Source of the DNA: Mytilus edulis
Lineage: Eukaryota
DNA length: 64,000 nucleotides
Assembly: GCF_963676685.1 (NCBI RefSeq)
Contig: NC_092346.1
Location: forward strand, 38,688,001 to 38,752,000
Reading direction: 5' to 3'
Shown here: positions 18,901-56,767 of the stretch, piece by piece
Layout of the letters: the number at the start of each line of letters is the position of its first letter
How positions within the stretch are numbered: the first letter of the stretch is position 1
Program-made: the position numbers and the translations under genes
The notes under the pieces: generated by a model
Databases searched by the model: none
Told to the model about the DNA's origin: nothing
Seen by the model: only the letters and a program-made list of their open reading frames with translations

Positions 18901-21900
18901 TTCAAATAGTTGGCTTTGAGTGTTCCTGATGAAGGTAAATCCAGAAAAGCGCCTCGGACGCATGAAGTTAATAACGTATTGTTTTCAATTTTTTACAAGC
19001 ATTTACCAACGTAAGAGTATTGATCAATAAAATGTGGAATCAAAAACACAAACGAGCCCAGTGCCATGACAACAGTCCCGCCTGCTACTATTGCCGCCTT
19101 ATTATATCGTCCGCCGATGAAAGTTACAAACAACACCACTATCAGTGATCCTATGTCCATAGAGCTTGGAATGAGTGCAGACTTCGTTGACGGAAGTTTA
19201 AATTGTCTCTCTAATGAAGGTATGGCCGAGTTCGCTATCCCATTTACTGCAAATCCTTCTATGAAGCACATAATGGAGACGAAGAGAATATAAAAATGCA
19301 TTTTATTGAATACTTGGAAACACCTGAAATAAAACATGTTTTAGTAATAAACTGCAAAAAATTAGATATCATTAGTCATTTTGTACATTAAATCCACGGT
19401 CGTCAAGTTGAAACACAAATTTCTAGCTAGGATTTGTTATCTCATAAGCAACACGACGGGTGCCACATGTAAAGCAGGATCTGCTTACCCTTCCGGAGCA
19501 CCTGAGATCACCCCTAGTTTTTGTTGTTCTTCAGTTTTCTATGTTGTGTCATGTGTACTATTGTTTGTCTGTTTGTCCTTTTCATTTTAGCCATGGTGTT
19601 GTCAGTTTATTTTCGATTTATGAGTTTGACTGTCCCTCTTATGTAGTAGTCTCCTTTTTCGTAATGACAATATGGACAAGATGATGGCAAAGAAGACCAT
19701 TGTGTTACAAGAACTATTCAACAATTATTTTCGAGTTATAGTTTAACCTTTGCGTTGTCGAACGATTAAGGTTCTATGTTGACATGGAATATCATAGATA
19801 TTGACCAGACTCAAATTAACAGCCACTTGCTTGCGACGGCCAGTTTTAACATAACCTAAATCTAAAACCCCCAAAGATGCATAAGATTCAAAATTTTGAA
19901 TTACCAAGGATGTTCAACCACAGGAATAGATAACCTTAGCTGTATTATGCTAAATCTTTCTAAAAATTTGCCCCAAAATGCTTTTCGTCTGTGTTCCTTA
20001 TTTTGCATTTGAACTCTTTTGATTTAAGTCTTACTGGTGAGTTCTAAAGATCAAACGCGCGTCAGGCGTAAATATTTATAAGTCTGGTATCTAATTTATT
20101 TCTCTCGTAGACTATAGCTTTCCGTTGACTCATGTAACATGACGACATTATATAAATTATGGTTGAATGCAACTCATTTTGTTGAATTCAATTGCAAAAA
20201 TTTCATGGCAGTTTAATTTTGAGAAATTATTCCATTACATTGCATGTTAATACCGAGAAAGTACAGTCAGCATAACATGCACGTTTTTATAATTTAATAG
20301 GAATTTTGTCGTTATTTTCTATTTGTGTCTAGTTCCAAAATTCTTGACATATTTGTCATTTCTCGAAAGTAACTTAATAACAGAATTTTAAAGAAGTAAC
20401 GTGCTTTTGTTTATTACACCTCTAATATTTTAGGTATTTCGTTTTCTTGGTATAAGAACTATGAGAGTGTGCTTTTGATGAGAAATAAAACTATTTGTAC
20501 ATCGAATAGTTTTCATAACTCAATCGTAAGATATAGGAATAGATTACAAAGTAGTCTGGCTAATATAATCTATTAAAATATACCTTAGTCTGGCTAATAT
20601 AATCTATTAAAATATACCTAGGCTTAAATGGACCATAACCCCAAGCCAGATCTTCACTGATATCATCCTAAAATACAAAATTTTAAATTAAAATAGTTTT
20701 AAATTTAATAATAATATTATAAAAATGAAGGAATGTTTACAACTTTTAAGAAAAACTATAAATCATTTCATCATGTTCATATTTTCTAAATAATATTTTA
20801 TATTTTAATTCATTAACTGCACAACTACTAATTTCTAGACTAAAGTCATCTTGTGAAAGATTCTTGGCAGCTACTGTTTTCATCTCCGTTCTTTTAGTCT
20901 CTGGAGGTCGTACCACATTTAATCTTTATAATAATTGTATCTGCGGTCAATATAGTTATTTGAATCGGATTATTCAGCGATAGTGCATCATGTACATGTT
21001 TAAGGGTTACGTTAATCTGCATGATTGCACACCTTTTATATCCTGTGTTCAAAAATTTAGAGCAATTGAAAGCTTCAAATAGGGTTTGGCAATGCTAATC
21101 CTGGTATCTTTTTTCGTGATAATCGTACATAGACAACAATGCATATAATGCTAAAGCTGCTCTTCATTTTGGTATGTGTATAGATAGAAGAAGGTGTGGA
21201 CCTTACACGTATAAGTGCCATAGACACAACTCTCCATCCAAGTCACAATTTATAAATTTAAAGTTAACCATTATAGGCCAAAGTACGGTCTTTAACACGG
21301 AGCCTTGGCTCACACCGAACAGCAAGCCATAAAAGGCCCCAAAAATAACAAGTGTAAAACCGTTCGAACGGGAAAACAAACGGTCTAATTGATATTAAAA
21401 GCGAGAACGAGAAATACTTTTGAACCACATCAACAAACGACAACTACTAAACACCAGATTCCCGATGTGTAGTTTGATTAACCGTTTCTATGAAGATATC
21501 AGGACTCAAATCTATGGTCGGTTCCAAATCTACCATAGATTCCTAATCTATGGCAAATGTGACGTCATGTTATCCAAAATCTATGGCAAGTTTTGTAATG
21601 TCCTAATCTATGGCGGATATTTGTTGTTATACCAAATCTATAGCCAATTTTGTGAAAATGGAGGTCAACGCAGCACATATGACCAATGACTTGTCTAAAA
21701 CAAGTGGAAATGAACTGTAGCATGTCTAAACATCCCATCATGGTCAACCAAATCGTGATGGCAACCAACAAAGTTTGTAAATGATGAAATCATATATTAT
21801 AATACCTTAATACAGACTTCAAGATTGAAATAAACATTTTCTAATCTGTGCATGGTTCCTGTTTAATCTATTCATTAAACTAAGGAAACTTCCAAAAAGT

Positions 21901-24900
21901 CTCTAAACGAATAAGAAGGCAGTTTTTTTTTTATATAAAAGAAATAGATAACATTAACTGTTTTAATTTTTACATAAAAAAAAAAATTCATCGTGAATAT
22001 GATCTTTTTTTTAATTTAAAGACGATTTATATCAAATAGAAATCCGGTTATTTCATCTTTAACTTTATAAACTTTGTAAGCCGTAGAAGTATTATATTAA
22101 CTATAACTCCTTTTCTATTTTCTAAAATATCTGATACTGAAAACAGCGGTACCCTTTTTCAGGTAGCACTCCACAGTTAGGTGTGTAGTTTCGCATTTTG
22201 GCCCCTGTGGATTTTTAAAATATGAGAGCTAGTGTGCAATAAAATTCATTTTTAGATAGCTGAGTATTAAAATAGCCTTTGTATTGGGTTAATATGAACA
22301 ACAAGGTTATGTAATGTATGTAACATAGGCTGTTTTCTGTACGACAGTCCGTATTTGCATGTCCATACCATACATTGGTCCGGCAATTATTGTAATGTTA
22401 TTTTCCAACTTTTTATCGCACGAACTTTGTGATTGGATTTTACGAAAACATGAGGCGAAAGACACCCATTTTTTATTTGATCATTAGGAAGATTTATGAA
22501 AACAGTTTCTAAAAAGGTAACACTCAAAGGCATTGAAATTCTAGTTTGATCCAAATTTTTGGGGGATATGTGACATGTTCACCCCCCTTTTTGCAATATT
22601 TTATGGTAAATAAATGCAGAATGTTGCCATGGATACACATAAAAGGAATTAATTTTCACCCTTTTAACTTTTGCAAATCAAATCTATGGAAGATACTGAT
22701 TACATACATATGCACATGTACAACACAAACAGTTAGGTTAATGTATTAGAAATCCAGGAATAGGAGATGATAAAACATTTTAGGGCTCATTTTTAATTTT
22801 TTTTTTAACTGTGGAGTGCTACCTCAAACACATTCTGTCCCTTTTCTAGATAATAGGTCAACTTTTCCTGAGGCTCCCGCAGGGTCAAAAACGACCTGCG
22901 ACCTCTGGCCTTTTTAGATGCCACTTCCGACCTGAGGGCCTTCTATAAACGACCTGCGTCCTGTAAAATTTGGAAAAAAACGACCTCCGACTTCACCTAC
23001 GCTAAAAACGACCTTGCTATTTTGGGCGCGATTTTTTCCTATGAGTCCTTTGTCGCCATTTTGGTTATCTGACAGATCGGTAAAACGGCGCGCGGTTACT
23101 GGTTCTTTGTCTCAACCTATTTCCCCCTTTCCCCCATTCCGGTATGTCAGTAACCAGATTGTCGTTTACTTCAACACAACTACAAAAAAAATGTGAGATG
23201 GTGAGTCGAAATCCGAAACTGTTTTAATTGACTGCTGCTTCAAATTATTTCTTGTCGGCAGTGCTAAAGCGGCCGAACAATGGTGGCACAAACTTGTTCT
23301 AACTGAAACGTCTTTTTAATCAACTAATGATTTGAAAAAAATTGATCTCTACAAAAATTACCCAAAACTGAACAATTTAGATATGATAAATGCATTGAAC
23401 CACACTGCTATGAATTGATAGGTATTGTAACGTGTCCGCCTCGTGTGAAACTCTGCAACTTTCAAAATGTAATGGACTCGGAAGGAGAACCTCTTGTGTG
23501 TATGCTACTCTTTTGTATAGCGGGGAGGAGTGTAACTGAGTTACAGGACTGGATCCCTGAACACTGTTTTACCTTCGGGCAGTGCTCAACGGACTCAGTT
23601 CCGATGTTGACACATTTTGGCTAAAATTAGCAATACCAATTAAAGTTAATTATTTAATTGATGAGACAAATATTTAATGATATTATACGATATAATGTTA
23701 TTAACTTCAACAAATGTAACTGATTACTTAAAATTTTAATAGTCACCAAGATTAAACAAGCAAATCGTAGGGATGTTCCTGGTCAAACAATACAAATAAA
23801 ATCAATACTTAGCAATATAATAAAAATGACTAGCTTTGAGCTATTATATCCTAACTTAGAAAATCGGCGGAATTACAATATCGTATGATGTGTTCCTAAA
23901 CTATGTAATAATCGAACGCGTATAGAGAAACAATAGAGACCTTTTCAATAGATCTGTATAGCTATTTGCTATTGGATACCTAAATTACACGTTTCTCTGA
24001 AAACCTTTTCGTATAGAATTTGGATTAGAAAGTATAAACTTTTATACCTAAAATATGTATGGAATTATTGTGTGAATATGCCGGAAGGTCACGTAGACCG
24101 TTAATAGTTCTTTAAAACTTAATAGTGTCTTTTATTGTATAATCAAATTAAAGACTCTGGTAACGAGTCGTTAAGTATATTACGTCAACAGAAATTGAGT
24201 CAGAATAATGACTTCAATGACTTTAATGACTTGAAAAAGCTTTTTAAATAAGCTAACCTTGAAATGTGTCACGTTGTTTATATAATGGAAAAGGTCAGAA
24301 AGACTCCTAAAGTTGCTTTATTATAGCAGCGTGGAAGTTGGCTTTTGGCTAGATGTTGCCTTATGCCCAGTTGAACCACACTTGAAACAATGCAATACGC
24401 ACGCTCTTTTATACCTAAATTTCGACTAGAAAATGACGTTTCGACTCTAAAAGACTCGAAACGTTACGTCTTTGACACGTTTAACGACAATCGATACTTG
24501 CTTTACGGCAATTGTACTGGAATAACAAAGTTGACCTTTCAATGCAAACAATCGTGCAAAATTGACTGACCAGGTATCCCTACGAAGCAATGATAAATGT
24601 GCATGATATGGAAATAATGTTAAACGTAAAATCATCTTAACAATGAAGTTTCAAATCACGGAAATAATCAGAAAGATACAAAACAGGTAAGTGCATGCTT
24701 TAACTTTTACGTTGCATTTGACGTCCAGAATTATTTGAAGGTTATTTGTTTTAAACAGTTTTTTATGCATATGATTATATATATATGAATATTATTAAAA
24801 AGAAAACTTGGTGACTAAAACTGAACATGGCCTGTTAAAGAACGGTAGAGTTAAGAAAAGAGGGGAACAGCGTAAACGCTAAAACATTACATTGCCCCCT

Positions 24901-27900
24901 TCTATAAAAAACTGTCCGTCCCGGACAGGGAATGATCGAACATGATAAATTTAAACACAATAAAAACATGATATAAGTACATATGTCAAATATAAAATAC
25001 AACTAACAATAATAATTTTCAAATGTCCATTCTATAATCTGAAATCCTGAATGTCTCTACTTCATCTCTGGTTAAAATCCACCCCCCAACCCCCAATGTC
25101 TATCTTCCAGTTACATTAACTCAAACATAATCTTCATCTCCGCACTCTGTGTTGCCATGTCCTTTGTAGTAGTTTCTTTTTGGGTCTCTTTCTCAGATGT
25201 TTCGGGCACCTGTATGACATCTTCTTCAGTTGTTTCCCCTTCTGTGTCGCTTCCCTCTATCACTACCACTGTTGTCTCTGTATACTCTCCATTCTCTACC
25301 GACTCTGTCACATCTTTTACCGGCTCTGCCACATATATTGGCAATGGTTTTTCTTCAATAGGTGGTAAGGCGGCATAAAGCTTTTTGAACAAGTAGGATC
25401 GGGCATCCAATAGGCACTCAGTTCATATACTGTTCCCTCAGGCAGAATTGCCTTTTCTACTTTCTTTACACCACCTATGCCATCAGGGATGACGGAGCCT
25501 GAATACATTTGGCTGCTTCTTCTTGCCTTTTCTCGAATACATAAAACCCTGGCAGCATCATCAGAGGTTTGGTATAAAGGGGGCGGTGCCATGAATCTTT
25601 TCTTTTCGTCCTTCAAGTCATCCTTTTTTGGGAGGATGAGTGTTATTTCTTTCCTCCGACAGCTTTTCTTCTTCTTTCTTGCTTTTGGCTTTTTCAGTGC
25701 TTTTTGGTGTTTCTATTTTCCTTTTCTTAGGAGTAGTAGGTAGAGGGGAAATTGGTCTGACCGGCGATTCAAAAAGTGCCATCAAATTCTCTGGTAACTG
25801 TGGTAAGCTTTCATCGTCATATCCCAAAGTGATAGGGACAAGGGACTTTATTGGTGAAAAGTTCATCATACTAGTACATTTCTCTGGGGACTTTTCAAAT
25901 TTCTGGATCAATGGCGCCCTCTTCATTGGTGATACCGGGATGACCAATGTTGGATTCGACCCCGGTTTTTCATTGTTATGTTTAGTTTTCTTTTCTGCTG
26001 CTTTTACTTGTTCTGCATGTCTTGCCTTTTCGTGTTCCTTCATCCTGAAGGCCAGGCTGCTAGAAACCTTATAGGAACAATATCTACATTCAACTATGGT
26101 TTTGGAATGCTTATTCCTCACATGTCTCATCATTTTCTCCCTGAACAAATATTCAGCACCACAGTGCCTGCACGTAAACATCATCTAAATAAAGAACATT
26201 TTGTCTTTAGAATAGGAAATGAAAATACAATTTAAATACCTTTGACCAGGAGGATCCCATCTTGCTTGCTTGTGTTACTAATTATTTAAGTTGAATTTTA
26301 TATTATCTTTGTTTCAGGTACATCTGAGTTAGTTTATGAAATATCCAACAGTATGCAGTAATCATCAGACCTGTTGTATATTGTATTAACTGTGCGCCTC
26401 TTCTTGCCGACCTCTTCTTATTTTCATATGAATCGGAGTTCCTCCAGACACTTGTAAAAAACAAGAGAATCAAAGAAGCCAGATTATTTAATTTCACTTT
26501 CAGATATATTGATGATGTTCTTTCCATAAACAATCCGAACTTTTCTGATTGGGTTCCATTAATATATCCCCCAGAACTAGAGATTAAAGAAACAACAAAC
26601 ACGGCTTCCTCCGCCTCATTTTTAGACTTATATCTAGAATTTGACTTACACAGTCATCTCAGTACCAGAATCTAAGACAAACGAGACGATTTTAATTTTG
26701 AAATCATAAATTTCCCCCACCTTAGTAGCAATATACCAACTTCACCTGCATATGGGATATATATTTCCCAACTTATTCGATATTCAAGAGCTTGCAGCTC
26801 CTACTCAGACTTTGTAATACGTCATCAGTGTCTGAGTAGAAAGTTGATGAAACAGGGGTATGTCAAAGAACGTCTCGTTCTTTTTCTAAAAAAGTTCATC
26901 GGAAGGTACCAAGACCTTGTTGATAAATATTCCGTATCAACTTCTCAAATAATACACGATGGTCTTGATGTATAGATTCTTCGTACTGATGTTGTTTATC
27001 ATCTTAACAACGTGTTTTATAGTTCTTTCATTTGTCTTTGTTCTATTATTAATATTACTTTTACTGTTGAATGGTTTCATGCGATATCCGTTTCACGTGG
27101 CTCGGTACTTATACATCTCGTCAATGTGTTTGTATTGGCTTTCATTTTTTTGTGGTTTGTTTTGTATTTGCGACTTTTTGTATTTCTTTTGTTCTTATAA
27201 CGTGACTCTGTACTTTAAAAGATCCCGTCAGTATGATATTGTTCTATTATATGTCATTATACTATATTTCTATTATGAATTACAATATACGTTGAACCAC
27301 AAACGTCAAAATCGTTCAATTGCGTAGTGGTATTAACTATTTTTGGATTCTTTTTTTTTTTTTTTTCAACATAAATAAATATTTATTTCAAATATTGGCT
27401 TGTTACAATATCATTCAAGAGTCCAAGCTGCTCCCGATGTTCCCTGTTACAATCCACTAATCACTCAGGGTAGTGATTAGTTGCAAAATACATATTACAT
27501 TTTTTACATCATATATATATATATATTAGATAATATCGATTAATCACGTAATATGTTTTCTAATAGTTGCTAAAACATTACTTTTAACCTTCAAACATAC
27601 TCTTCTATTGAACTCATTGCGAAAAATTGAGTAAACATTGACATTTTTTGTCTTTTGATCAGATATGTAGTAGGCTTTATAAATTGAAAAGCCCACAATT
27701 GTTAAAAAATAGTTTAAGTCAAAATATTCTTCTTCAGAAGTTTTATATCCAAATACTAAGTGTCTTAGTTTTACTTTAAAAGTTATTTTACTGTTATTTA
27801 AAACTTTATTTATTTTATTCCAAAAAAGTTTTAAATACGGACACAGTATAAAGAAGTGATCATAATCTTCTTCTTGTGTACAAAAATTACAAGAACTATT

Positions 27901-30900
27901 GTTTACAATTTTCCACCTGCATAAAAGTTTCTTTGTAGGTAGAATATGTTGTAGTAATTTCCATCTAAAAATTCTAAGTTTATTTTCTTTTAAATATTTG
28001 AATAAAAATTTATATAGATAGTTTTGATATAACACATCATCTATATCAAATATACGCAGCCATTTTTTGGGTCCAATAGCTGGTTCAATTTTTTTATTTA
28101 TCAGAGACTTATATACAAGTTTATTTGTTAATGCTTCTAATTTTATAGGTAAACCATCCAATATAAATTGGTTTCTTTTTATATTAACAATACTTTTTAT
28201 AGAATTTTCCGATTTTAAAATTGCTGCCCAGTCTTTTGGTATAGATTTCTTAACTAAATTAATTTCAGCCATCCAGTTTGATTTATTTTTTAGTTTATTT
28301 AAAATTATGTCTTGAGAAATACAACCTTTTTCATCTATGATATCATTTACATAAATAAGATCGCTTTTAATCCAATATTTTAAAAATATAGCTTTATTTT
28401 CAAATTTAATAAATTTATTGTTCCATAATATTTGTTTTCTTATATCTGTAAATGTTTCTGGTTTTTTTGTTAGACCTCCACCAGTTAATTTCCAACATTT
28501 AATAATATCTTTATAAAATTCTGGGATTTTTTCAATGCTTTCGTCTGTCTTATCCCCACTGTTTGTTTGAAACACTAACCAGTTTGACCCAAAATTATAA
28601 AAATAGTGTTGAGGTATAATTGTCCAACTTCCTTCACAATCATTTACTAATCTTTTTACCCACATAGCTTTTAGAGCGGTGAAATAACTTCTGATATCTA
28701 TCATATTCAAACCCCCCTTTTCATATGGACTAATAATTGAATTTCTTTTTACTTTATCTGGTTTATTATCCCAAATAAATTTAAAAAAACTTTTTTCTAT
28801 TTCTTTTAAAAATTTCTCTGAAACTCTGCAAGCAGATCCCACAAAAGTAAAAATGGGCACAATTAATGTTTTAATTATCAAAATTTTTCCAAAAATAGTA
28901 AGATTTCTTTTTTGCCAAGAATAAAATAATTTATTCATCTTTTCAATCTTATTTTCCCAATTTAGTTTATCACATTCCTCCGTACAATGCCCAAAGTAAA
29001 TGCCAAGAGTCTTAACTGGTCCATTGCTCCAGTTGATTCCCTCAATTTTGTCTTTACAAGATTTAAGTTTTCCTACCCATAACCCCTCTGTTTTGTTTCT
29101 ATTTAATTTCAGCCCTGAATAAGAACCAAAAATTTCAATTTCATTCATAGCTACTTGAACATCATATTTAGAACAACAAAATAAAGTAGTATCATCTGCC
29201 AGTTGCGAAATTTTTATAGTATGATTTTTGCAATCTAATTTGACTCTGATACCTTTAAAATCAGTATTGCTTCTTAATCTGGAAGCCATAATTTCCACAG
29301 ATAAAACAAATAATAATGCAGATAAAGGACACCCTTGACGTATACCTCTTGTGTTTTTAAAGACCTCAGATATCCAACCATTATTCATTACACATGTTTG
29401 AATATCACTATATAAAGTCTTAACCCATCTTATAAAAGATTCATTAAATCCAAAATGTTTTAAAACTGAAAACATAAAATTCCATTCTAGAGAGTCAAAT
29501 GCTTTAGAAAAATCAACAAAGACTATAGCCCCCTCAATTTTGTATAAATCAGTAAAATCTATAATATCTTGTATCTGTCTAAGATTAAAACCAATAAATC
29601 TATTTTTAACATATCCAGTCTGATCTTCTTTAATCAGTTTTGGTAAGATTTTTTTCAATCGTTGTGCTAGAGCGTACGATAGAAGTTTCATGTCAATATT
29701 TAAAAGAGAAATAGGACGGTAATTATCTAGTGACAATGGATCACCTTTTTTAAATAATAGCGTTAATACACTGGTACGCTGTGAATATGTAAGTGTTTGA
29801 TCTTTGTATCCAATATTTAGAATGTTTACTACTATGAACTTTAAGTTATCCCAAAATTTTCTATAAAATTCCACGGTTAAACCGTCTAATCCAGGGGATT
29901 TATTAAGTTTCATTTTATAAATAGCATCTGAGCATTCTTCTACTGTAATATCCCCATCGCAAATTGATTTATCATTTTTATCCATTTCTTTATCGAGTTT
30001 TGTCTCAAATATATATTTGTCGCTTGATGTTTTATCAGGGTTTTGCGTCGAATATAACTTTTTATAGTATTCTCTAATATTACTAAGTATATCACTTTGA
30101 TCCGTTAAAATCTCACCATTTTCCCCTTTTAATTTATTGATTGACTTTTTTACCTGTCTCTGTTTTTCTAAACCTAAAAAGTACGAGTTATTTTTTTCCC
30201 CAAATTCAACCCATTTCTCTCGTGATCTTATTTGAGCACCTTTAGCCTTTTGTTCATAAATTTTGGCAATATTATTTTCAAGTTCTTCAATATCTTTATC
30301 TAAAACGTTATTCTCAGATTCTTGTTCATCTCTTATTTTCAATTTTCTTTCTAATTTTTTTTCAAGAGTTCGTAAGTTTTCTCTTTTAAATTTTGCTTTA
30401 GATTTACAATAAGCTATAGTTGCCTCCCTTATCTTTATTTTAAATATATCCCATGCTAAACCAAGGTTTTTTAAATTACGATTACCCATAAAGCAGCTTT
30501 CCATTTCTTGATTAACTAATTGTATGTAGTCATTATCTTCTAATATAGAATTATTTATTTTCCAGTACCCCCTACCCTTTTCTGATGCACCTGTTCTAAA
30601 CTTCATAAAAACACTTTGATGATCCGTAGAATCAATAACTGCAGGTTTAATTTTACAACATTCTACTAGTGGTATGAAATCTGAACCTATCAGAATCATA
30701 TCAATCCTACTTGCCTGTGATTTATCTTTTCTTCGCCAAGTATATTGTTGTTTATTTTTATTTGAATATCTCCAAAGGTCTGTTAAATTATTTGTTTTTA
30801 TTAAAGATTTTAAACTATTTACTGATTGGATATTTTTTACCTCTGAACGAGCATTTTTCCTGTCTATCGCTTTCATCGTATCATTGAAATCTCCCCCCAT

Positions 30901-33900
30901 TATCGTAATTCCTATCCCTTGTTCTTTTAATGTATTATTTACTTTTTTGAAAAATATATTTCTATTACTTTTACAATTAGGTGCATATATACACATTAGT
31001 GTAAAAACGCTTTCATCAATTTCTACATTTAAAAGAATTAATCGTCCATCTACATCGTTATGTTTATTTATCAACTTATAATTCAGTGACTTTTTAATGA
31101 GAATAGCCACACCCCTACTAGAGGTTGTTCCGTGACTGCAAAATATATCAAAATTTGAATTATTTCTTATTTCTGTTTCTATGTTTTCATTAAAATGAGT
31201 TTCTTGTAGAAAACAGATAGAAGTATTTTGACATTTAATCCATTCAATTACTCTGTCTCTTTTAACTTTATTTTTAGTACCATTTACATTTAAACTACTT
31301 AAGTTTATTAGAAATTTAGATGCCATTTCAAAGTATAGTTTCATATAATTGTATTATTTCCTCACAAAACTGTCCATGCCTGCAAACAATACAATTAAAA
31401 CACATGTTTATAACAATCATATAGAAATCAACAATGTATATCACTCTATTTCTATAAACATAAAAAGTACAATTCATCAAGCTACCTAAAATTACAGGTA
31501 GCAAATAAAACACGCTACCTGTGAATACGGCATTTAATTTACCGGTCTGCTTTGACCTTGTTTTGTAAAAATCAATAGACAATAAAATTGACACTGAAAT
31601 AATCAACATCCACGTGTGATTTGTTACAGCCTTACAATGACTATTTGAATGGATATATCTGGTTGATATGCGTGTCTTATTCACATTATGTGTGTGCATA
31701 CTTTTATTTGAAAAAGTGAAATGGAGAATGTAAACAAATTTAGGATAATAACGTATGTCAACTACATCGTTTGCTTTTAAAATTGTGTTGGCTATGCTTA
31801 CTAAAAAAGTAAACTGTTCGCAAGATATTTTACTTGTATCTATTAGGAAGTTTAAAAGAATATTCAATAGTGCATATCGTGGATTTATTACATGTACCGC
31901 AACATTCAAATATACTTCAAAAATATATTTTATTGAACTACAAATACAGTATAATCTGTATGGATGAATACGCTGACATTGAGGTAAGTATTTATACATT
32001 CTAAACAGTGAAAAATTGAATATTAATATTGTATTCAGTGTTCTACTTAATGTCAACAATCGTTCATTTACTATTAATAGCACACAGCATGTGTATACTT
32101 GCGCTAAAAATAGCGCAGATAAAAACCCACTTACTAGTAGTATGATAATTATATAAATAAATATTCGCTGTTCGATTTTTTTCAGCGATTGACCAATAGT
32201 AAACACAATAGTTGTAAATAATATTAAAGCAATAATGCACATCGTGCATACATGCATTTCATGAGATACTTCATTGAAATCAAAAATAGTTGGTAATATA
32301 TTTCTTTTTGACATATACATCTCACACTTTATATATCTTTTGTTATAGTTTAGCAAAGCCTTAAATAGAATACAGGTTTTGAGTTTGCATTTATAAAAAC
32401 ATGCACATGAGTTGCATTTATGACCAATAGTCAACTTCACAATCAACAACATCAACACATTGAAGTTAACTCTTATAAAGAGCTGAAAACTTTTTTTAGT
32501 ATTCATTTTGATTTTTTTTTTGGTTTATATTATACATGTATATAGATAAAAGATCATTGTACTATAATATTTACATTAAAATATTTTACATTGTCTATAT
32601 GACTACAATTATTAAGCTTTGGCCTTCTTGGGGCCATTATTACCAGTAGTTCTGTCATGTAAGTTCTCTGGGGGTGTAGGTGGGGTATGATGTTGAGACA
32701 GATTCCTGCGTTGACTTTGCGGTGTGTTCATAAATTTGTCTATATATGATTGTGCTTTGTCAGAATTGCTTGAACTTGTCTCATTCATACTAGCCTTTAC
32801 CTTTCCTGGTTTTGCTGAATTTGTCTTATTTGCATTGTTTGAACTAGTGTCTGTTGTTTTTGTATTTCTACCTTTTGGTTTGTTTGCCACATTTGTTTTT
32901 GGGTTTAGTTTCTCAGTCTGTTCAGTTGACTGAGAATCATCTACTGTAACAGATTCATCTGTGGTCACTATTTGTTCTTCTTTGTTGCTTACTACTTGGA
33001 ATGCATTAGGACAATCCATCATTTTGTGGCCTGGTAATTTGCATTTTCTACACACCCAATCATTTGGGCAGTCATACACAAAATGACCCACTTGCAAGCA
33101 TTTATAGCATGGTTTTGTATTGCCATCACTGTAAGAGCCTCTGTTTTCAAATTCAGGTTGCCCACTATGCATTACTATGGCCATGTATTTGCCTATTTGT
33201 AAACTTCTAGCTATAGGTTTGTCTAACAACTTACTAATAATAATTCTGTCTCCAGTTTGACAGTTGGTGATTTTGCCTTTTACCCTTAACCGTTTTCTAT
33301 TAAGACTCTGTATGTCACAACCTTGTAATGTAAGGGCTCTATGTATTTGACCATCATCAGCTGAAATCGGCACATTTTTCACTATAATTCTGATGGTATC
33401 TGGTTGTAAATTGCCTGGATTTCGGGGATTTTGAGAGTGCAGGGGAACTTGTCTGCCACGCAAGTTCATTCCTGTCACTAACAGAGACAGTTTGTCCTCC
33501 TCGTTATCCATGTAAATGCTCCACATATCACGGATTCTCTGAATACCTTTTATCCGTTCAGCTGGAATTTTTGTATCAATGGCGTTGTATATTTCTATGT
33601 TCGTAAGCCATAGGGGTCTCGGTGGTTTAACAGAACCAAATACATCGGTATCTGTCAGAAATATGGGTTTTATATAGTCACTTGGATCATGTGATTCATC
33701 TGTAGTATAATCAGCCACAACTGTTTTGTTTTGGTTTGTGTTGGTGTTTGTATTTGACAGTACATCAGAATAGGACGCCATATTTGTTTTGTTTTGATTT
33801 GAAATGTCTACCTCGGGGTCTAACAACTCTTCTTGCATACCTTGCATGTCTTCCATAAGACGTTTAAAACGATCTTTTGACATCTTTTTAACTAATGCCT

Positions 33901-36900
33901 CAATTTCTGGTTCCATCATGTAGTTTAACTTTAAGAAAATTATATTTTTTCTGGAGCGGTATCTCACTAAGCCTTAGCCATAAAGGGACATCACATTTTT
34001 GGATTCTTATAAATTCTATATATAACTTTTGGACTAGGTTAAATCTCGGTCTATTTCTTAAATTTATTCTTACATACTTTTGATTTTTTAACCCTGTATG
34101 CTAACATTCCCATGAAAATTTTAAAATTGTTTGTACGCACATTGAACGACAAATTAATGTGACGTATAAAATTTTCTGACGTCAGACACTCAACAAATGT
34201 GTTCGTAGATAGTAGATGTTTTTGTGTTCTGTTAAATTGTTCCTTTTAATATTGTTAAACGATGATGACTGATGTACCCATATTTTGACTATTATATTTA
34301 TTGTGTCTGTTTATTTAACGCATCAATGTAAAAATATCGGAAATTGATGAGACTGTCATTAAAGTGAGAGGGTTAGCGCTATAGAACCAGGTTTAGTCAG
34401 GAATATGACAGTTTTTGTCCATTCGTTTTTGATGCGTTTTGTTATTTGATTTTGCCATGTGATTATGGAATTTCCCAATTGATCTTCCTCTAAGTTCAGT
34501 ATTTTTGTGATTTTACTTTTTAAGACACATGGGGCATTTATTACTCATTCCCCTGTGCATTCCAGTGAGGCAAAAACTAGGACACAGACGCAACTCATTG
34601 CCTCTAGAGCTTTTCTATACCATTTAATGATTACTTCATAAGTTATCTTCATATTGCCAAATGAATAGATTCTGGGTACAAAGTATATGCTGCAGTTTAC
34701 ATCTAAGTACCAGTTTTCCTTATACCAAGTGTGCTATGTACACTAATATTGTTATACTTTATAAATATCAATATAATATGATATAATGATAAGAACATTT
34801 TTATTGAAAATAGAACTCAAAAGGGCATTATTAGTTGTTATTGGGTAAATAATATGAAATTAGTTTGAGCTTTTCATGTCTTTCAGGCAACAGTATGCTC
34901 AGTGCTTTGATTATTTTTGTCTTCGTTTAATTTGTTTTAAATAACCCAGTTATTAACTTCTCGGTAATAGGGTTTTAAAAGGTCGTGATGAACAACCTGT
35001 GACCTTGAAGATGGATTCTTCTGAATTTTGTAGGTCACATCAGACAGAATTACTATAAAGTATGGGCCATCCCATTTTCTTTGAAGTTTAGGACTAATGT
35101 TTTTGACCCGAGTAGGGGTATACAACCACACTACATTCCACTTCTGGTATGAATGTTGATAGCTCTTAATATCATATTGTTTTTTCTGATTTTCACTGGC
35201 ATTTACCATATTTTGTGTTGCTTTCTCATGTACTTTCCACATGTTTTGCGTTATCTGAATCATATGTTCATTTACTACTTGGGTTTTATCGATAAAATCT
35301 TCGTGTTGGGGATGGGGGCCATAAATTAAGTCAATGGGGAGTTCAATCTCTCGACCAAGCATCAGTTTACAGGGTGAAAATTTTGTTGACTCGTGTACTG
35401 ATGACCGGTAGGCCATGAAAGCCCATGGCAACTGTTCATCCCAGTCCTTTGATTGGAACAGACATATTTACTAAGTATTTCTTCCAAACTGCGATTGAGT
35501 CGCTCCACCAGCCCATCACTTTGAGGGCGGTAAGGAGTGGTTCTCGTTTTGTCGATACAGAGTCGGGTACATAATTCTTTAAATAATGCCGACTCAAATT
35601 GTCGTCCCTGGTCTGTGTGGATTTGTCTGGGAACACCAAATCTACACACAAAGTTATTTGCAAAGTTATCTATAATAGTTTTGGTCTCCATATCAGGCAT
35701 GGGATACCCTTCAGCCCATCTGGCGAAGTAGTCTGATACTATCAAGGCATATTTATTGCCCTTCTTCGATAATGGAAATGGCCCTATTATATCTAGAGCC
35801 ACGCGTTCCATTGGTGCTCAAACATGATATTGCTTCATTTTACTCTTGGTCCTTCTCGGAGGCTGTTTTCTAGAACTTCACATGGTACAATGCTGTATCC
35901 ACTTTAAAATGTCTGTTTTGAAATCCACCCAATAAAATCTTCTCCGGACACGAGCAACCGTTTTATGTATGCCTAAATGTCCTGACGTTGGATTATTGTG
36001 TAATAATTGTAAGATATCTTTTGTCCAACAACTGGGAACCAGTAACTGGTTTACTGTCACATTAGTAATTGTGTCAAGCCATTGCCTGTTTAAAACACCA
36101 TTCTCAAAAAACAATACGGTCCTATTGAGACCAATACCGTTTGAATATTGGGTTTTGTATTGCTATGTCCCCCCCATTTCGTTTTATCTTTCGACTCGGT
36201 TTTCATCTGATATAATTAACCTAGGATTTCGTCAGATTTTTGTGCCGGTATTATTTCTTCAGTTGTCTTTTGTTGAATCCTTTGCGTCTCATCTTCAGTA
36301 TTTTGGTCTTCTATATCGTCATTTGTCTTTGCCATTCTAATGCACCCTTCCAATTCAGTATTAGTAAATTCTTTTTGGTGTTGTTTATTGCAGTGGCTAC
36401 ACGGGTAGCATGGTCTGCGCGATAGCCCATCAGCATTCCCATGAAGTCGCACAGGTCTATGTTGAACCTCAAAGTTTTTAAAACGTCTAACCATCGGGCC
36501 ATTTGACCTTCTGGATTTTTGAACCATAATAACCAATTTAAAGCACCATGGTCTGTGCGAACTAAAAATGGACTGCCATATAAATAATGGTGAAAATTTC
36601 TTACCGCAGAAACAATTGCAAGGAGTTCTCTCCTTGTCACACAGTATTGTCTCTCAGGCTTACTCAGCGATCGACTATAATAAGCTATTACACTTTCTTT
36701 TCCATTAACTGTTTGGGACAATACAGCACCAAGACCATACCCACTAGCGTCCGTGTCTAAAATGAAAGGTTTTTTCATGTCGGGATAACCCAGAAGTGGT
36801 GAAGTTGTAAGCGCGTTTTTTAGTTCCTGAAAAGCATTTTCACAAGTTTCAGTCCAATCATACTGAACGTTTTTCTCTGTCAGTTTGTGCAATGGCTTTG

Positions 36901-39900
36901 CTATAGTGGCGAAGTCTTTAATGAACCGTCTGTAATAAGAACATGTACCCAAGAAACTTCTTACTTCTTGAATGTTTTTGGGAGATGGCCAAGATTTAAC
37001 TGTTTTGATCTTTTCAGTGTCTGTTGAAATGCCTTCTTCCGAAACTATATGACCCAGAAAAGAAACCCTTTTTTGAAATAAGTGGCATTTTTTGGGAGCC
37101 ACTTTTAAACCATTAGTGGCTATTCTGCCTAAAACTTCATCAAGTCTCTTTAAATGCGATTCGAAGGAATCAGCAAATATAATTATGTCATCTATGTAAA
37201 TCAAACAAGTCTCCCAGTTTAACCCTGCTAGTACGTACTCCAATAGTCTCTGGAATGTGGCTTCACCATTACATAGACCCATGGCCATGACATTGAAATG
37301 GAAAAGACCTTTAGAAGTTGAGAAAGCAGTTTTCTCTTTGTCCTGGGGGTCCATTTCGACTTTGAAATATCCACTCGATAAGTCCAGCACAGAAAACCAT
37401 TTAGAGCCCCTCAATGCATCTAGGGAATCGTCTATTCTTGGAAGTGGGTATGAATCCTTGATTGTCTTACTATTTAAGATTCTAAAATCTGTGCATATTC
37501 TCGTAGAAGAGTCTTTCTTTTTCACAAGAACGAGACTTGTTGACCAAGGACTTTTAGATGGTTCTATAATGCCACAATCAAGGAGTCGTTGTACCTCCTT
37601 GTCGGCTTCCTCTCTTTTATGAAAAGGTAATCTTCGGGGTTGTAATTTAACTGGAGTAGCCGTTCCTGTGTTTATCTTATGTCTAATGGCTGTTGCTCTA
37701 CCCAAGTCATCTTTTGTTTTTGAAAATGTACCTTTATGTCGTACAAGTACTTGTTTCAACTCATCAACCTGAGACTCTGAAAGATTTGAACTACTTCTCT
37801 CAAACATATCTTGTAAATTCAAAGGAATATCTTATGAGTTTTCTTTAGTTATCATCTGTGATACTTTACAAGTATCTTCATATCTTTGAGTCATGTCAAC
37901 TGACTCACAAATAGCAGTACAAGTTGACTTAAATACCGTTTGTACTTCATCTGTCAAGTTTGCTATCCTCAAAGGGACATGACCTTGACTTGGGTCAACT
38001 AAAGCCTTAGCAATCAGGAGATTACTAGTATGATTAGACATTACTGGTTCGACAATTGCGTCCATGATGTGTGATGAGTCACCTTGAACATTTGCATTGA
38101 CAATCATTTCAGTATGGGCAGGAATGGTCATTTTTTCATTTATGGAAACCTTAAAAACTGAAGGCATTTGACTCAACTTCATGCAATTTATTTTGATTCC
38201 ATTTATGGTTAATATTCCAAAGCCTAAATCAAGGTTACATTTATTTTTATGTAAAAAGTCATACCCCAGTACAGCTGGTGCATCAATTTCTGCTACAGTA
38301 AATTTTTGTGTTATCGAACTTCCCCCAATCTTCACAGGTAAGTCAATTGTTCCTAAGGTTTGGATACTGTCACCATTTGCCATGCAAAGTTTTCTTTTGT
38401 TTATCTTTAATAATGATTTTACTTCAGGAGGAAAAGCATCAAAATTTCTAGGATGTATAATACAGAGTGTTGCTCCTGTATCAACCAAACAGTTTATGTT
38501 AATATTTGAAATAAAACATTTTATAAAAAGACTTGTTTATTTTCATTAAATTGGTAAATATTAGACCTAACATCAAAAATGTAGTGCTGGTGACTGGTCC
38601 GCTTCACCAGCATTTTCTAGTTTCCCTGTCTATCAGTCTGGGTACCCTGTGTATATTGTGAACCATAATTAAACCTTTGCTGTGTGTTGGGTGATGAGCA
38701 GTACTGTACAGTATTATTTTGTCTATCATTTTGGTATTAACGACAAGTTTTTTTCATATGACCTTTAATGCCCCAATAGAAGCAGGTAACACCAGAGTAG
38801 TCATTAGACTTTTGAAATTTAGCCATGTCATCTAATTGATGACTCATTTTTGCAATCTGTCCTAAAATGTTATCTTCATCATCTATTTGTTTAAATGGGG
38901 TTTCATGTTGCATTCGAATAGCTGGTTTTGTGTTAGTAAGCCTTTTGAACTATTTGTGACCCTTTTTGTATCTTTAGTCGGTTAGAAGTCTTCGTTTCGA
39001 TTCTAGAGCCTGATAAGCTATCAAATTGTCAGGTTATGATAATTTTGTACCTGTTTTGTTGGTATGTTGATATTCAACTACACTGGTGACTATGTGTGTG
39101 CTTCACAGAGAAAAATGTACCCAAGAAAGGTTAATAATCAGTTTTATGTCCCGACAAGATTGTTGCGGTAAACATAGTTTTTCTGTCTGTTCGTCCATCC
39201 GTTCGTTCTTCAGTTACACGTTGGTTTACCTTTGCGTTTAAGATGATTTCCTAAAAAGTTTCAAGTCGATTCTTCATGAAATTGTGTACCGTACTCTTTA
39301 TTTATCATGCAATGGACTATAAACTGTGTAAAAATGGGGGGAGTTCCGTCGAAAATGGAAATAAGTGCCGATCGGGACATCCCCGTCTCAAAGACATTTC
39401 ATTGTTACCACCAGTCTACGTAAATAGATCTTGTTCAAAGTATCTGAGTAGACTTTTAGTTAAATCCAGCTCTACATCCCCGGTGGTTTTATAAGAGTTC
39501 TAGGAACTTGATCGATATGAATATGTGTTGGATAAGTGAAATACTGAAAGTTTGGTTGAAACTACTGTTCTGAAAAATCGAAAAGTTCAAGTCCTCTTAT
39601 GGTCTCAAAATGGTAAAGAAACGATATGGGTTAATGACACGAAGTCATCACATATTGATCATTAAATGTCACACAAAAATAAATCTAGAGCTGACGACAC
39701 AAACTTCGATAGAGCAGGAACTTCCCACTTACAGAAAGCCATCTCTTGATTGCCTCAAACAAAACAAGAACTATCGAACCGAAGGGCACTGAAAAATGTC
39801 CAAATATCTAATTCAAACCTAAAAGGTTTAATCAGGAACTTATATGTGTCTGATTTAATAACACACGAATCGACACAATACCGACTTAAATGGATCCTTT

Positions 39901-47950: not shown

Positions 47951-48435
47951 TATAAAAAAAGATGTGGTGGTATGATTGCCAAGGAGACAACTCTCCACAA
48001 GAGATCAAAATGACACAGAAATTAACAACTATAGGTCACCATACGGCCTTCAACAATGAGCAAATCCCAAACCGCATAGTCAGCTATAAAAGGCCCCGAA
48101 ATGACAATGTAAAACAATTCAATCGAGAAAACTAACTGCCTTATTTACATAAAAACAAATGATCGAAAAACAAATACGTAACACATAAACAAACAACCAC
48201 TGAAGTACAGGCTCCTGACTTCGGACAGGCACATACATGCATAATGTGGCGGGGTTAAACATGTTAGCGGGATCCCAACCTTCCCCCTAACCTGGGACAG
48301 TGGTATAACAGTACAAAATAAGAACGAACTATATTAAAATTAGTTGAAAAGGCTTAACTCATCAAAAAGACGCTAGGAACAGATCTGAAAGTACTCGCAG
48401 TTAACTGACAGCTAGTTCAAATCCACTAACAACTA
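47951..48435 (+). repeat. Abundant dispersed SINE-like repeat (AAGATGTGGTATGATTGCCAATGAGACAACT family), interrupting a minus-strand retrozyme copy
   Basis: Copies also at 48990-49520(-), 57345-57530, 58545-58700, 61660-61790(-), 63535-64000. Confidence 0.85.
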
Positions 48436-48989
48436 TATGACCATATCAACTATAATGACCATATCAATGATTATTCATGTCAACAAAGAAGTGCTGACTA
48501 CTAGGCCGGTGATACCCTCGGGGTAATAAAACTCCACTAGCAGTATCGATTATAGTTTATCCTGCATGTTGATGAACATGGAGGCGCATAATAGACAACC
48601 TATTCCGATAAATGACATAATTCGAAAGTGGTCTTGTAGGAGTTGGAGTTTCAAAATCAAACATTACGGAAACTGTTAATGCTGCATGGTCACAAGTATT
48701 CGCGCAATATATAAACATGCAAACGCGGTCTCGAAAAAAAACCCCTTAAATTCCCATCCCACGTATAAGAAGAGTTTAGTTAAACTAGTCCACAGTGGAA
48801 AAGGGTCTTCAAAAGTACTGTGAAAGTGGTTACTCGTGTTGTGGTATTAACCATTTATGGATTCCAAAAAAAATTGTAAAGAAAACTTAAATCTCAATCT
48901 TTCTCCGAAACTAGTTCTGTCAAAACGTTTGGTTTTGTTACATTATATATCACCATTGATAGTTTAGTCTTAGATGCATGATTTTTTTA

Positions 48990-49520
48990 TTAGTTGTTAG
49001 TGGCTTTGAACTAGCTGTCAGATAACTGCGAGTACTCTCAGATCTGTTCATTGTGTCGGAATGTATAAGTACCCGGCCACGTCTACTTGTATATTTGTCC
49101 ATCTGATGAGTTGAGCCTTTTTCAACTGATTTTTATAGTTCGTTCTTATGTTGTACTGTTATACCACTGTCCCAGGTTAGGGGAGGGTTGGGATCCCGCT
49201 TACATGTTTAACCCCGCTACATTATTTAAGTATGTGCCTGTCCCAAGTCAGGAGCCTGTAATTCAGTGGTTGTCGTTTGTTTATGTGTTACATATTTGTT
49301 TTTCGTTCATTTTTTTACATAAATAAGGTCGTTAGTTTTCTCGTTTGAATTGTTTTACATTGTCTTATCGGGGCCTATTATAGCTGACTATGCGATATGG
49401 GCTTTGCTCATTGTTGAAGACCGTACGGTGACCTATAGTTGTTAATGTCTGTGTCATTTTGGTCTTTTGTGGATAGTTGTCTCATTGGCAATCATACCAC
49501 ATCTTCTTTTTTTTTTATAT
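48990..49520 (-). repeat. Same SINE-like family, inverted copy
   Basis: Reverse complement of 47951-48435 and 63535-64000. Confidence 0.85.
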
Positions 49521-55085: not shown

Positions 55086-55714
55086 CTGTTGTATATTTGT
55101 TAACAAACAAATTGACTTTTTGTTTCATATAAGAAGTTATAAATTCAAATAAAGAACTCATCATGAATTTCCTATGTATTATTTCTTGCCCGTTTTATCC
55201 AGGATAGATCAGCTGATTATAGTGTTTTTGTTCCTTATAAATCTGTAACGGACTTAATAATACTAAGACTAAGATTAAATTGAAATTTAATTGTCACAAA
55301 TTTTTAAGATGTAAAGGATAATTATATATTCGCGTGTTTGTTAGTTTATTTATTTCTTTGCAAACCGGAGTGCGATATAAGATGATCCGACTCTCTATGC
55401 TACGTGTATCTTTTGAGAAAAAGCCTGACTGGTGTTGACATGATGATAGATGTAAACAAAAAGACGAAAGCCCAAGTCAATCGTTTGAAGACTTGAATTA
55501 TCTTTCGGAAATGAAACAATAGAGAGGTTTAGCAAACGTTCGTGTGCGTGAACGCGTACGTGTAGAACAGAAGTACACGTACCCGTAAGTTTTTATTATG
55601 CCACGGTGTGTTTAGCAAAGTAGTACGTATACGTGTACGTGTAAAAGACGTAATGCAAAATATTATCTCATTGGTTGAAAGCAAAGAATAGTTGCCAATA
55701 AATGTCTTTGTTAT

Positions 55715-56767
55715 ATGTTTGATAAATATGGCGGAAACTTGAAAGTGTTAGCAGCTTTAGAAGACTCCGATGAATTACTGCTTTTGTCATTATGTAAAGA
55801 GGAAAAGGGCAACTTTCCAGGTATAGAAGTTGAAAAACTTACAAATGAACAGTGTCGATCTTTTTTTAGATTTGATAAAGATGATATTGAAATTCTTCGT
55901 CGCGCCCTGCGTATACCAGAGAAAGTTGTATGTAGTAATCGCACGACGGCAAGGGGTATTGATGGACTTTGCATGGTATTACGACGACTTGCCTACCCTT
56001 GTCGCCTTGAAGATCTAGAATATATATTTGGCAGATCAAAAACAGAACTTTCTCTCATTATCAATGAAGTTCTCGATTACATACATGACAATCATTGTCA
56101 TCTCCTTTCAGACTTCAACATGAGTTGGCTCTCACAAGAGTGTTTAGAACGTTTTGCAGGTGCGGTTTTCGATCGTGATGGGCCTTTAGATAGCTGCTAG
56201 GGTTTTATCGACGGTACTGTTAGACCAATATGCAGACCACAGGAAAACCAAAGACTTGTGTTTAATGGCCACAAAAGGTCACATGCCTTGAAAGTTCAAA
56301 GCATTGTTACCCCTAATGGGATCATCTCAAACTTGTTTGGTCCCATAGAAGGACGTCGACATGACGCAGGAATGTTACGTGAAAGTGACATTTAAGCACA
56401 AATGAGGTTCCATATGACAACTCCACAGGGGAGAATATTTTGCATCTATGGTGACCCGGCATATCCGGTGACTGATGGATATATAATTGCACCATTCAGA
56501 GGCGGAGTCATCTCCAGGAATCAAATGATTTTCAACAAAAGAATGTCAGCAGTACGCATTTGTGTGGAGTGGGCTTTTGGGAAAGTTTTGTCATTATTTG
56601 CATTTCTAGACTACAAGAAAAATCTAAAGTTATATCTGCAACCCGTGGGAAAGTATTACAAAGTAGCAGTTCTACTGACAAATTGTCATACCTGTCTTTA
56701 TGGCAGTGAAACCGGGATATTTTTCGATGTATCACCACCAACATTAGAGGAATACCTATTGGGCTGA
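55715..56767 (+). pseudogene. Harbinger (HARBI1-like) DDE transposase with two in-frame stops
   Basis: LRRLAYPCR, C*GFIDGT, GRRHDA, YGDPAY, RICVEWAFG in one frame of 351 codons; TAG 56198-56200 and TAA ~56393. Confidence 0.9.

Follow-up and report, generated by a model that had tools for sequence, protein, structure and literature searches.

A C2H2 zinc-finger gene in the env position of a long-LTR Gypsy lineage of molluscs

The window, i.e., the whole stretch of 64,000 nt of the Mytilus edulis genome that was analysed (NC_092346.1, positions 38,688,001 to 38,752,000), carries a decayed Gypsy element on its minus strand. A gag remnant, pol, a third gene (hereafter ORF3), a polypurine tract (PPT) and a candidate 3' LTR follow one another in the sense direction, with a large insertion between pol and ORF3. 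The features are listed below in this direction; L002, L003 and L004 are related loci described further on.

38620..38928, minus strand: remnant of the gag 3' end (weak match at 38928-38665, E=0.15)
34937..38536, minus strand: Gypsy pol, protease-RT-RNase H-integrase order, with several breaks
34520..34936, minus strand: pol-side part of the spacer
26381..34519, no strand assigned: nested insertion of 8139 nt, foreign to the Gypsy family
about 26385-27330 and 33995-34519: very high-copy RT-type repeat remnant, its two parts split by a Tx1-type LINE
27340..34005, minus strand: the LINE within the insertion, with a poly(A) tail and an 11-nt flanking direct repeat
33973-32612, minus strand: LINE ORF1 with CCHC
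31353-27544, minus strand: LINE ORF2, open, a 1269-aa endonuclease-RT
26185..26380, minus strand: ORF3-side part of the spacer, within a 388-nt contig of run X12 (26145-26380 + 34520-34671)
26185..26215, minus strand: splice-acceptor-like site, a pyrimidine run and TAG abutting the ORF3 ATG; the same in L003 and L004
25618..26184, minus strand: ORF3 piece 1, with ATG, two C2H2 fingers, SP/TP-rich spacer and PKKRK cluster; agrees in register with natural relatives as far as about 25643
25367..25643, minus strand: ORF3 piece 2, the conserved core of about 75 aa (helix and beta-hairpin); second break near 25367
25111..25367, minus strand: ORF3 piece 3, ending in the stop: the acidic Thr/Glu tail and its LC8-type motifs (one without its anchor here)
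24913..24929, minus strand: small stem-loop a little upstream of the purine tract; L002-L004 have it as well
24895..24903, minus strand: polypurine tract
23426..24891, minus strand: 3' LTR candidate of 1466 nt, TGTAA...TTACA, single copy in the window

The element has the hallmarks of Ty3/Gypsy: the protease-RT-RNase H-integrase order, found in the window and in L004, and a PPT with a TG...CA 3' LTR, found in the window. The end of the 3' LTR candidate resembles those LTR ends of L003 and L004 that lie ahead of a primer-binding site. The 64-kb window yielded no 5' LTR, self-comparison included, and no primer-binding site or target-site duplication; a short, 70% identical pair (39909-40010 versus 22923-23017) was set aside as lying outside the LTR. 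The element is truncated or interrupted upstream of the gag remnant, and this copy is dead. The high-copy repeat remnant in the insertion, which is presumably Penelope-like, had no Pfam match. Rfam gave no match in 23000-40000, and the tRNA gene search found none.

ORF3 begins with the minus-strand frame at 26184, TTCTTTATTTAG|ATGATG, which runs for 188 codons. The preliminary description of this locus had read from this start two C2H2 fingers, an SP/TP-rich stretch, a basic cluster and an acidic Thr/Glu tail, and all of these are present. The open pieces on the minus strand are 26184-25618, 25712-25317 and 25422-25111, and the stop lies about 205 nt from the purine tract.

In the window, the end of pol (34937) is 8.7 kb away from ORF3, 8139 nt of these being the nested insertion. 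Both contig runs mapped over 23300-39200 (X1 and X12) contained a joint from 26380 to 34520 that skips the 8139 nt, supported in X1 by 56 nt on the short side and in X12 by the 388-nt contig over 26145-26380 and 34520-34671. Since this joint exists in other copies, the family spacer between pol and ORF3 measures about 613 nt and the 8.1 kb are a nested insertion. The placement of ORF3 between pol and the PPT/3' LTR, as described previously, is thus right for the family, whereas in the window the nested insertion had been missed. The summed contig depth in X12 (187-198 over the ORF, 123-180 over pol and 382-610 over the LTR) is not a copy number and gives soft support. Five public runs recorded as RNA contained 7-27% of the sampled words; these were counted as no evidence.

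The same arrangement is found in two M. edulis gene models, CAG2238372 (1125 aa) and CAG2227333, in which the same pol, 91-97% identical to the window pol in most segments, is followed directly by the same finger protein. In natural records of M. edulis and M. galloprovincialis, ORF3 is one protein that runs through both break points of the window copy, and the ORF3 part of CAG2238372 (358 aa) is colinear with the window's 1071 nt. The three pieces are therefore one ORF, as had been suspected. Comparison with the natural relatives places the breaks near 25643 and 25367: the two frameshifts of the preliminary description stand, but not their positions (~25710 and ~25385), and its estimate of about 350 aa becomes 358 aa in natural records.

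ORF3 belongs to a Gypsy family as its third gene, with a sense-strand position after pol and before the PPT. The competing reading, that the window copy captured a fragment of a host zinc-finger gene or received an unrelated insertion upstream of the PPT, could draw on the 8.7 kb of other repeats between pol and ORF3 in the window and on fingers that match generic families only. It is, however, very improbable, given that pol and ORF3 are directly joined in other copies, that distant elements have the same layout and that the core domain has no Pfam, PDB-sequence or host-like multi-finger match. Capture of a host fragment confined to this copy, or its absence from other family copies, is contradicted by the gene models, the contig joint and the distant elements. 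An ancient capture may be the ultimate origin of ORF3.

A profile of six relatives was searched against 1.84 billion representatives of 50% clusters with a cut-off of E<=0.001. It found 83 related proteins, including P0091, a probably false match kept in the counts; nearly all of them matched through the middle piece (the core), at 27-69% core identity to the window for the distant members. Named members were found in 6 of the 20 distant clusters looked up: Mytilus galloprovincialis, M. coruscus (2), Argopecten irradians, Haliotis cracherodii and a 'Sedimenticola' MAG. Overall, the named members of the family come from three Mytilus species, Argopecten and Haliotis. Longer fused forms of ORF3 were looked for and none found, which is weak evidence.

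A DNA pattern for the core retrieved four loci (L001-L004), two of which show the complete context. L004 comprises gag, an open pol of 1259 aa, ORF3 beginning 77 nt past the pol stop (two fingers, core and one TQT), a purine tract and the LTR. L003 carries the same genes on a permuted contig, with an open pol of 1249 aa and ORF3 within about 80 nt of its stop. In both, the LTR is 2.2-2.5 kb long, and its end is followed by a TGG primer-binding site and gag. The LTRs of L002 and L003 contain tandem repeats, which are candidate binding sites for ORF3. Conserved segments of their pol are 39-52% identical to the window pol (74% between L003 and L004), and their core domain is 38% identical to that of the window. 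The contigs are filed in a bacterial MAG but are clearly Gypsy elements, most likely from co-binned animal DNA. Moreover, three distant gene models (P0051, P0056 and P0082) mix members of the ORF3 family with pieces of Gypsy pol. The genomic context thus covers three elements and five gene models; L001 and L002 are too short for pol, and the scallop and abalone members are unplaced. Alignment search A1 found no relative in metagenome or viral contigs, and A2 none in viral contigs, where the core motif pattern also had 0 matches. Overall, ORF3 is a dedicated and old accessory gene of a long-LTR Gypsy lineage of molluscs, and the lineage probably extends beyond molluscs, to other marine invertebrates.

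The layout of the protein is fixed: an N-terminal finger pair, a variable S/P-rich linker, the core, and an acidic tail that holds up to three motifs of the TQT type and at least one. The window fingers have the spacings C-x2-C-x12-H-x4-H and C-x2-C-x14-H-x4-H, and Pfam zf-C2H2_4 matched them with E=0.002 only, a match too weak for its cut-off. In an AlphaFold2 model of the natural relative P0007 (52 sequences), residues 1-80 formed two fingers with pLDDT >90, and the linker was disordered. Both the ligands and the beta-beta-alpha fold of C2H2 fingers are thus found in ORF3. Compared with DNA-binding C2H2 pairs, the best match was YY1 (Z 5.1, rmsd 1.9 over 52 residues), with many others at Z 4-5. 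The Cys-His gap of the second finger is 14 residues in eight of nine two-finger database proteins and 15 in the ninth, and all 11 two-finger proteins have one finger with a spacing of 14-15. A Kruppel-type tandem array was rejected: there are only two fingers, the linkers are variable and non-TGEKP, and one finger is widened. With such linkers and a widened second finger, sequence-specific DNA binding is not assured. Fingers are visible in 17 of the 83 family matches, many of which are fragments, and an NLS-like cluster occurs in 19 of 85 proteins. In the window, piece 1 contains seven S/T-P sites together with the PKKRK basic cluster, and the linkers of L003 and L004 ORF3 are Ser/Arg-rich.

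Neither the core in the middle piece nor the LC8-type motifs had featured in the preliminary description. The core consists of one helix and a beta-hairpin with the turn LP[DE]G, an invariant Tyr and a conserved Trp. It was modelled at moderate confidence in P0007; alone it reached pTM 0.35 and formed no compact globule. Such loose packing would be expected of a module that folds on a partner. It has no Pfam family, no PDB sequence match beyond one chance row and no usable Atlas match, the Atlas search giving generic C2H2 clusters only. The fold search likewise returned nothing above noise (best Z 2.7 for the domain alone and 4.1 within a longer model), which does not make the fold new.

One resemblance deserved closer comparison. 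The 2W-hairpin/REPO motif of YY1, Ies4, Rtt102 and BCL7 is, like the core, a short beta-hairpin with a conserved Trp at its end, and in YY1 it is combined with C2H2 fingers, as the core is in ORF3 (PMC9733932 and PMC11761322, in the text available). Ies4 was also the top Foldseek row for the core, with a non-significant E=0.54 obtained with a low-confidence model; among Foldseek's top chains for the core, no VIA alignment came up to Z 2. Strand 2 closes with the core Trp in 51 of 65 members, and any Trp within the 12 residues before the turn is found in two. The core as a 2W-hairpin/REPO anchor for actin-Arp was rejected, the defining first Trp being absent from 63 of the 65.

The tail is marked by a short recurrent motif. 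The 83 proteins contain 45 TQT, spread over 32 of them, compared to 7.9+-2.7 in 300 local shuffles (maximum 18); IQT (14 versus 3.2 expected) and VQT (10 versus 4.8) are in excess too, and the permutations QTT and TTQ are unenriched. The family matches are related by descent, and these counts are not independent events. The +2 position of the TQT motif is D, E or P in 32 of 44 cases, against 22% nearby, and Pro stands just before the anchor once in 45. The position is constrained as well: Gln lies exactly at +15 from the core Trp in 40 of 58 members, and an anchor-like triplet at this offset is present in 34 of 58, whereas eight of nine slid offsets gave 0-2 and the other one 9 of 46. Several family members end right after the tail motif. 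The mussel family is without the fixed-position motif and has kept two distal motifs, one of which has lost its anchor in the window copy.

At the family level, the tail thus has the sequence of LC8/DYNLL clients, i.e., [T/V/I]-Q-[T/V] with D/E/P at +2 and no preceding Pro, and this pattern matches the reported preferences of LC8/DYNLL (PMC6607443 and PMC3078936, in the text available). The IQT and VQT variants and the lack of an SQS/TQS excess argue against plain ATM/ATR S/T-Q sites. Judging from the motif pattern, the tail probably binds the host LC8/DYNLL dimer, which would pair two ORF3 chains; many TQT peptides fail to bind LC8, according to the available part of PMC6607443.

The third ORF of a Gypsy element would ordinarily be expected to be env, and a degenerate env or sORF2-type fusogen would indeed fit the position of ORF3 and its acceptor, which are those of env. 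Yet the highest mean hydropathy over 19 residues was 0.5-1.0 in all eight natural proteins checked, far below that of a membrane span, and the same was found in all three window pieces; the fingers begin at residue 4-10, leaving no room for a signal peptide. Because there is no membrane segment, ORF3 is not env or a fusogen of the sORF2 type, and the env reading is refuted, with next to no probability left to it. That this is an atypical, non-env gene in the env position had been recognised correctly.

Each of the three elements for which pol context is available (those of the window, L003 and L004) has a pyrimidine run with YAG 0-3 nt ahead of the ORF3 start codon. With a threshold derived from the site itself, an equally good acceptor on the same strand precedes 9 of 364 ATGs in the window and 1 of 166 and 5 of 136 in the L003 and L004 elements, which are not independent of each other. 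L001 has an acceptor-like site before the fingers and no in-frame ATG, so that a first exon would be needed there. Further acceptor-like sites immediately precede the gag ATG of L003 and L004. A donor-like site located 110-150 nt upstream of where the LTR ends was among the top two in the window and L003 and outside the top eight in L002; a conserved donor could not be fixed among these three. Two RNA runs, of which 6% each was used, had a depth of 0-1 over the window ORF3, and at this depth none of the 15 joints listed, of 294, was a spliced joint at 26184. The splice acceptor noted earlier is hence borne out as a sequence and in its conserved position in two distant elements, but not by a spliced read. 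The ORF3s of LTR elements typically come from spliced RNA (PMC5408684, in the text available). On the strength of these sites, ORF3 is likely made, as env is, from a subgenomic RNA in which a donor in the LTR or leader would be spliced to the acceptor before the ATG.

Overall, these features can be combined into a mechanism. Transcription from the LTR promoter would, after splicing, give rise to a nuclear ORF3 protein; LC8 would pair two chains beside the core, so that a reader with two fingers, weak by itself, would gain four; the paired fingers would bind a sequence within the long LTR of the element itself; and a host co-factor recruited by the core would let the element adjust its own transcription, most likely upward. 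That the paired protein is nuclear, reads its own LTR through the fingers and tunes transcription through a co-factor recruited by the core is a reading to which we give about an even chance. The same evenly balanced confidence applies to the best explanation as a whole, namely that an old accessory gene of the family, expressed by splicing, encodes a nuclear, LC8-dimerised regulator of its own LTR. The regulator suggested in the preliminary description is indeed element-encoded and its anatomy fits such a role, but the direction of its effect is left as an inference.

Several other functions are compatible with parts of these data. ORF3 on the chromatin or RNA of the element might soak up or displace the LC8 needed by a host co-transcriptional silencing complex. 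In Drosophila, LC8/Cut-up dimerises PICTS via Panoramix motifs and is needed for transposon silencing (PMC7861614, in the text available), and a retrotransposon that itself encodes a nuclear-type protein with repeated TQT would suit such interference. One to three motifs per protein are, however, few for a sink, and the fixed spacing between motif and core fits self-dimerisation of ORF3 better, which makes this counter-silencing improbable. Panoramix itself is, to our knowledge, restricted to flies. A bolder form of the self-regulation model can also be formulated, in which the Gypsy lineage encodes an ASCIZ-like factor dimerised by LC8 on the LTR, whose core recruits a remodeller or outcompetes an LC8-dependent piRNA silencing complex; it is unlikely, if somewhat less so than counter-silencing by ORF3 through LC8 withdrawal.

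Slightly less probable still are two proposals that place ORF3 after or outside transcription. As a post-transcriptional regulator of the Rev/Rex kind, it would bind element RNA with its fingers and control the export of this RNA or how much of it is spliced; the non-canonical linkers and finger spacing, the Ser/Arg-rich linkers of L003 and L004, the stem-loop kept before the PPT in all four loci checked and the acceptor-like sites that immediately precede gag in L003 and L004 would all agree with this, but the fingers match DNA-binding pairs best. To the same small degree, ORF3, alone or spliced onto the integrase end, might be a transport or integration adaptor that links the particle or pre-integration complex to dynein through LC8 and to chromatin through the fingers. 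In two M. edulis gene models the integrase end is fused in frame with ORF3, the window pol has a GT after its last Trp codon, and LC8 motifs recur in viral proteins as a known theme. This window GT is nevertheless a weak donor, and the equivalent GT of L003 and L004 is out of phase with their acceptors, so that the integrase-ORF3 fusion looks like a prediction artefact; moreover, LC8 is mostly a dimeriser rather than a cargo adaptor (PMC3078936, in the text available). A self-regulating, LC8-paired protein is accordingly the reading that we prefer to these proposals.

Among known third ORFs, the env of errantiviruses (Ty3/Gypsy, Metaviridae) shares with ORF3 the order gag-pol-ORF3-PPT-LTR, the sense strand and the acceptor; it has a transmembrane segment and a signal peptide, whereas ORF3 has neither and carries zinc fingers instead, and 'zinc' does not occur in the main text of that survey (PMC13524379, as far as available). 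The bdelloid LTR-element ORF3s (GDSL esterase, DEDDy exonuclease and TM/coiled-coil proteins; PMC5408684) and the additional ORFs of plants (PMC7264820) are likewise family-wide extra ORFs between pol and the 3' LTR. They belong, however, to other protein families, none of which is described as C2H2 in the available text of these two papers; in that of PMC5408684, 'zinc' and 'C2H2' have 0 occurrences. The sORF1 of Drosophila 412/mdg1 is also an accessory protein of an element, nuclear, with a predicted DNA-binding-like motif and an open function, but it is about 110 aa long, of the helix-turn-helix type, encoded upstream of gag and expressed by early polyadenylation rather than splicing (bioRxiv 2025.03.14.642691, available part).

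The nearest parallels in layout and role lie outside Gypsy elements. ASCIZ has C2H2 fingers at its N terminus. This transcription factor (ASCIZ/ATMIN) has a disordered C-terminal region in which several LC8 motifs tune its activity (PMC5963919, in the text available), and the ORF3 tail would be alike, its LC8 binding being inferred; yet ASCIZ is a host gene with many more motifs and without the ORF3 core, and the homology to ORF3 that was found is confined to generic fingers. For the proposed role, the VANC anti-silencing proteins of Arabidopsis VANDAL offer a comparison, each being the element's own sequence-specific regulator, as ORF3 is proposed to be (PMC12859917, available part). VANC and foamy-virus Tas are unrelated to ORF3 in protein and element class. 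Tas, too, is a mobile element's own sequence-specific regulator. By analogy, ORF3 would be ASCIZ-like in layout and retroviral-transactivator-like in role, and it is a member of neither group.

No prior description of a C2H2 ORF3 in animal Gypsy elements was found in the literature, outside most subscription papers, supplements and Repbase. The main texts of three surveys of mollusc and annelid LTR elements are without 'zinc', and the supplements of PMC6238403 or Repbase may already hold these elements. ORF3 is a real accessory-gene family without a previous name, extra ORFs after pol being as such already known.

In animal Gypsy elements, a third ORF is generally assumed to be env, and surveys seek membrane proteins. 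Here, a conserved non-env ORF3 of the regulator type spans at least bivalves and one gastropod and carries a putative docking motif for a host hub under clear positional constraint. It also explains mussel gene models named 'C2H2-type domain-containing' as genes of retrotransposons, not host transcription factors. With ORF3, the standing question becomes testable whether retrotransposons of animals code for transactivators or silencing antagonists of their own; should the bolder, ASCIZ-like form of the model be true, it would be the first sequence-specific anti-silencing factor encoded by an animal retrotransposon, the equivalent of plant VANC.

In all four loci checked (the window's Gypsy copy and its relatives L002, L003 and L004), a short stem whose loop reads GGA or GGGG lies a little 5' of the polypurine tract (PPT); its letters differ between loci with the pairing kept. 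The stem may act in cis, as a signal for reverse transcription or packaging.

Window 24929-24913, minus strand: stem before the PPT
L002 ~848-860: the same
L003 ~715-730: the same
L004 ~227-215: the same

Apart from the Gypsy copy itself, the window holds several further features, listed here.

18993-19340, minus strand: host transporter exon (OATP/SLCO gene)
27340-34005, minus strand: LINE, looking young, with ORF1 and ORF2 both open and an 11-nt direct repeat at its flanks
32524-31328, minus strand: hydrophobic open frame of 398 codons between the LINE's ORF1 and ORF2
47954-49513: long inverted arms of 202, 94 and 67 nt, ~90% complementary, nested around 48435-48991
55679-56767, plus strand: pieces of a DDE_Tnp_4 (Harbinger-type) transposase

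The transporter exon is on the same strand as the Gypsy LTR, ~4 kb downstream of it. The LINE, which we take to be of Tx1 type, is inserted within a very high-copy repeat that may be its target, and the 398-codon frame had no Pfam match. The inverted arms could derive either from two opposed repeat copies or from a foldback element.

A 'Sedimenticola' MAG of GTDB includes both full Gypsy elements, L003 and L004. In that MAG one piece of the family's third gene (ORF3, the finger protein) is labelled a hypothetical protein of bacteria (P0105); the bin is likely contaminated with host DNA. Another ORF3 relative, P0089, has a RING finger at its end (Pfam E=4e-11); this may be a true fusion or the product of a chimeric gene model.

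Tandem repeats with 36-nt and 13-nt units occur within the long LTRs of two relatives.

L002 2082-2261: tandem repeats
L003 1975-2200: tandem repeats

The second ORF3 finger of these elements has a classical R-x-D-N-x-x-R helix, and the repeats are candidate arrays to which the finger protein would bind; the window's LTR has no such tandem array.

An acceptor-like YAG also stands directly 5' of the gag ATG.

L003 3310-3325: acceptor-like site
L004 6720-6705: acceptor-like site

This arrangement suggests that in L003 and L004 gag and ORF3 may be alternative splice targets of a single donor further upstream.
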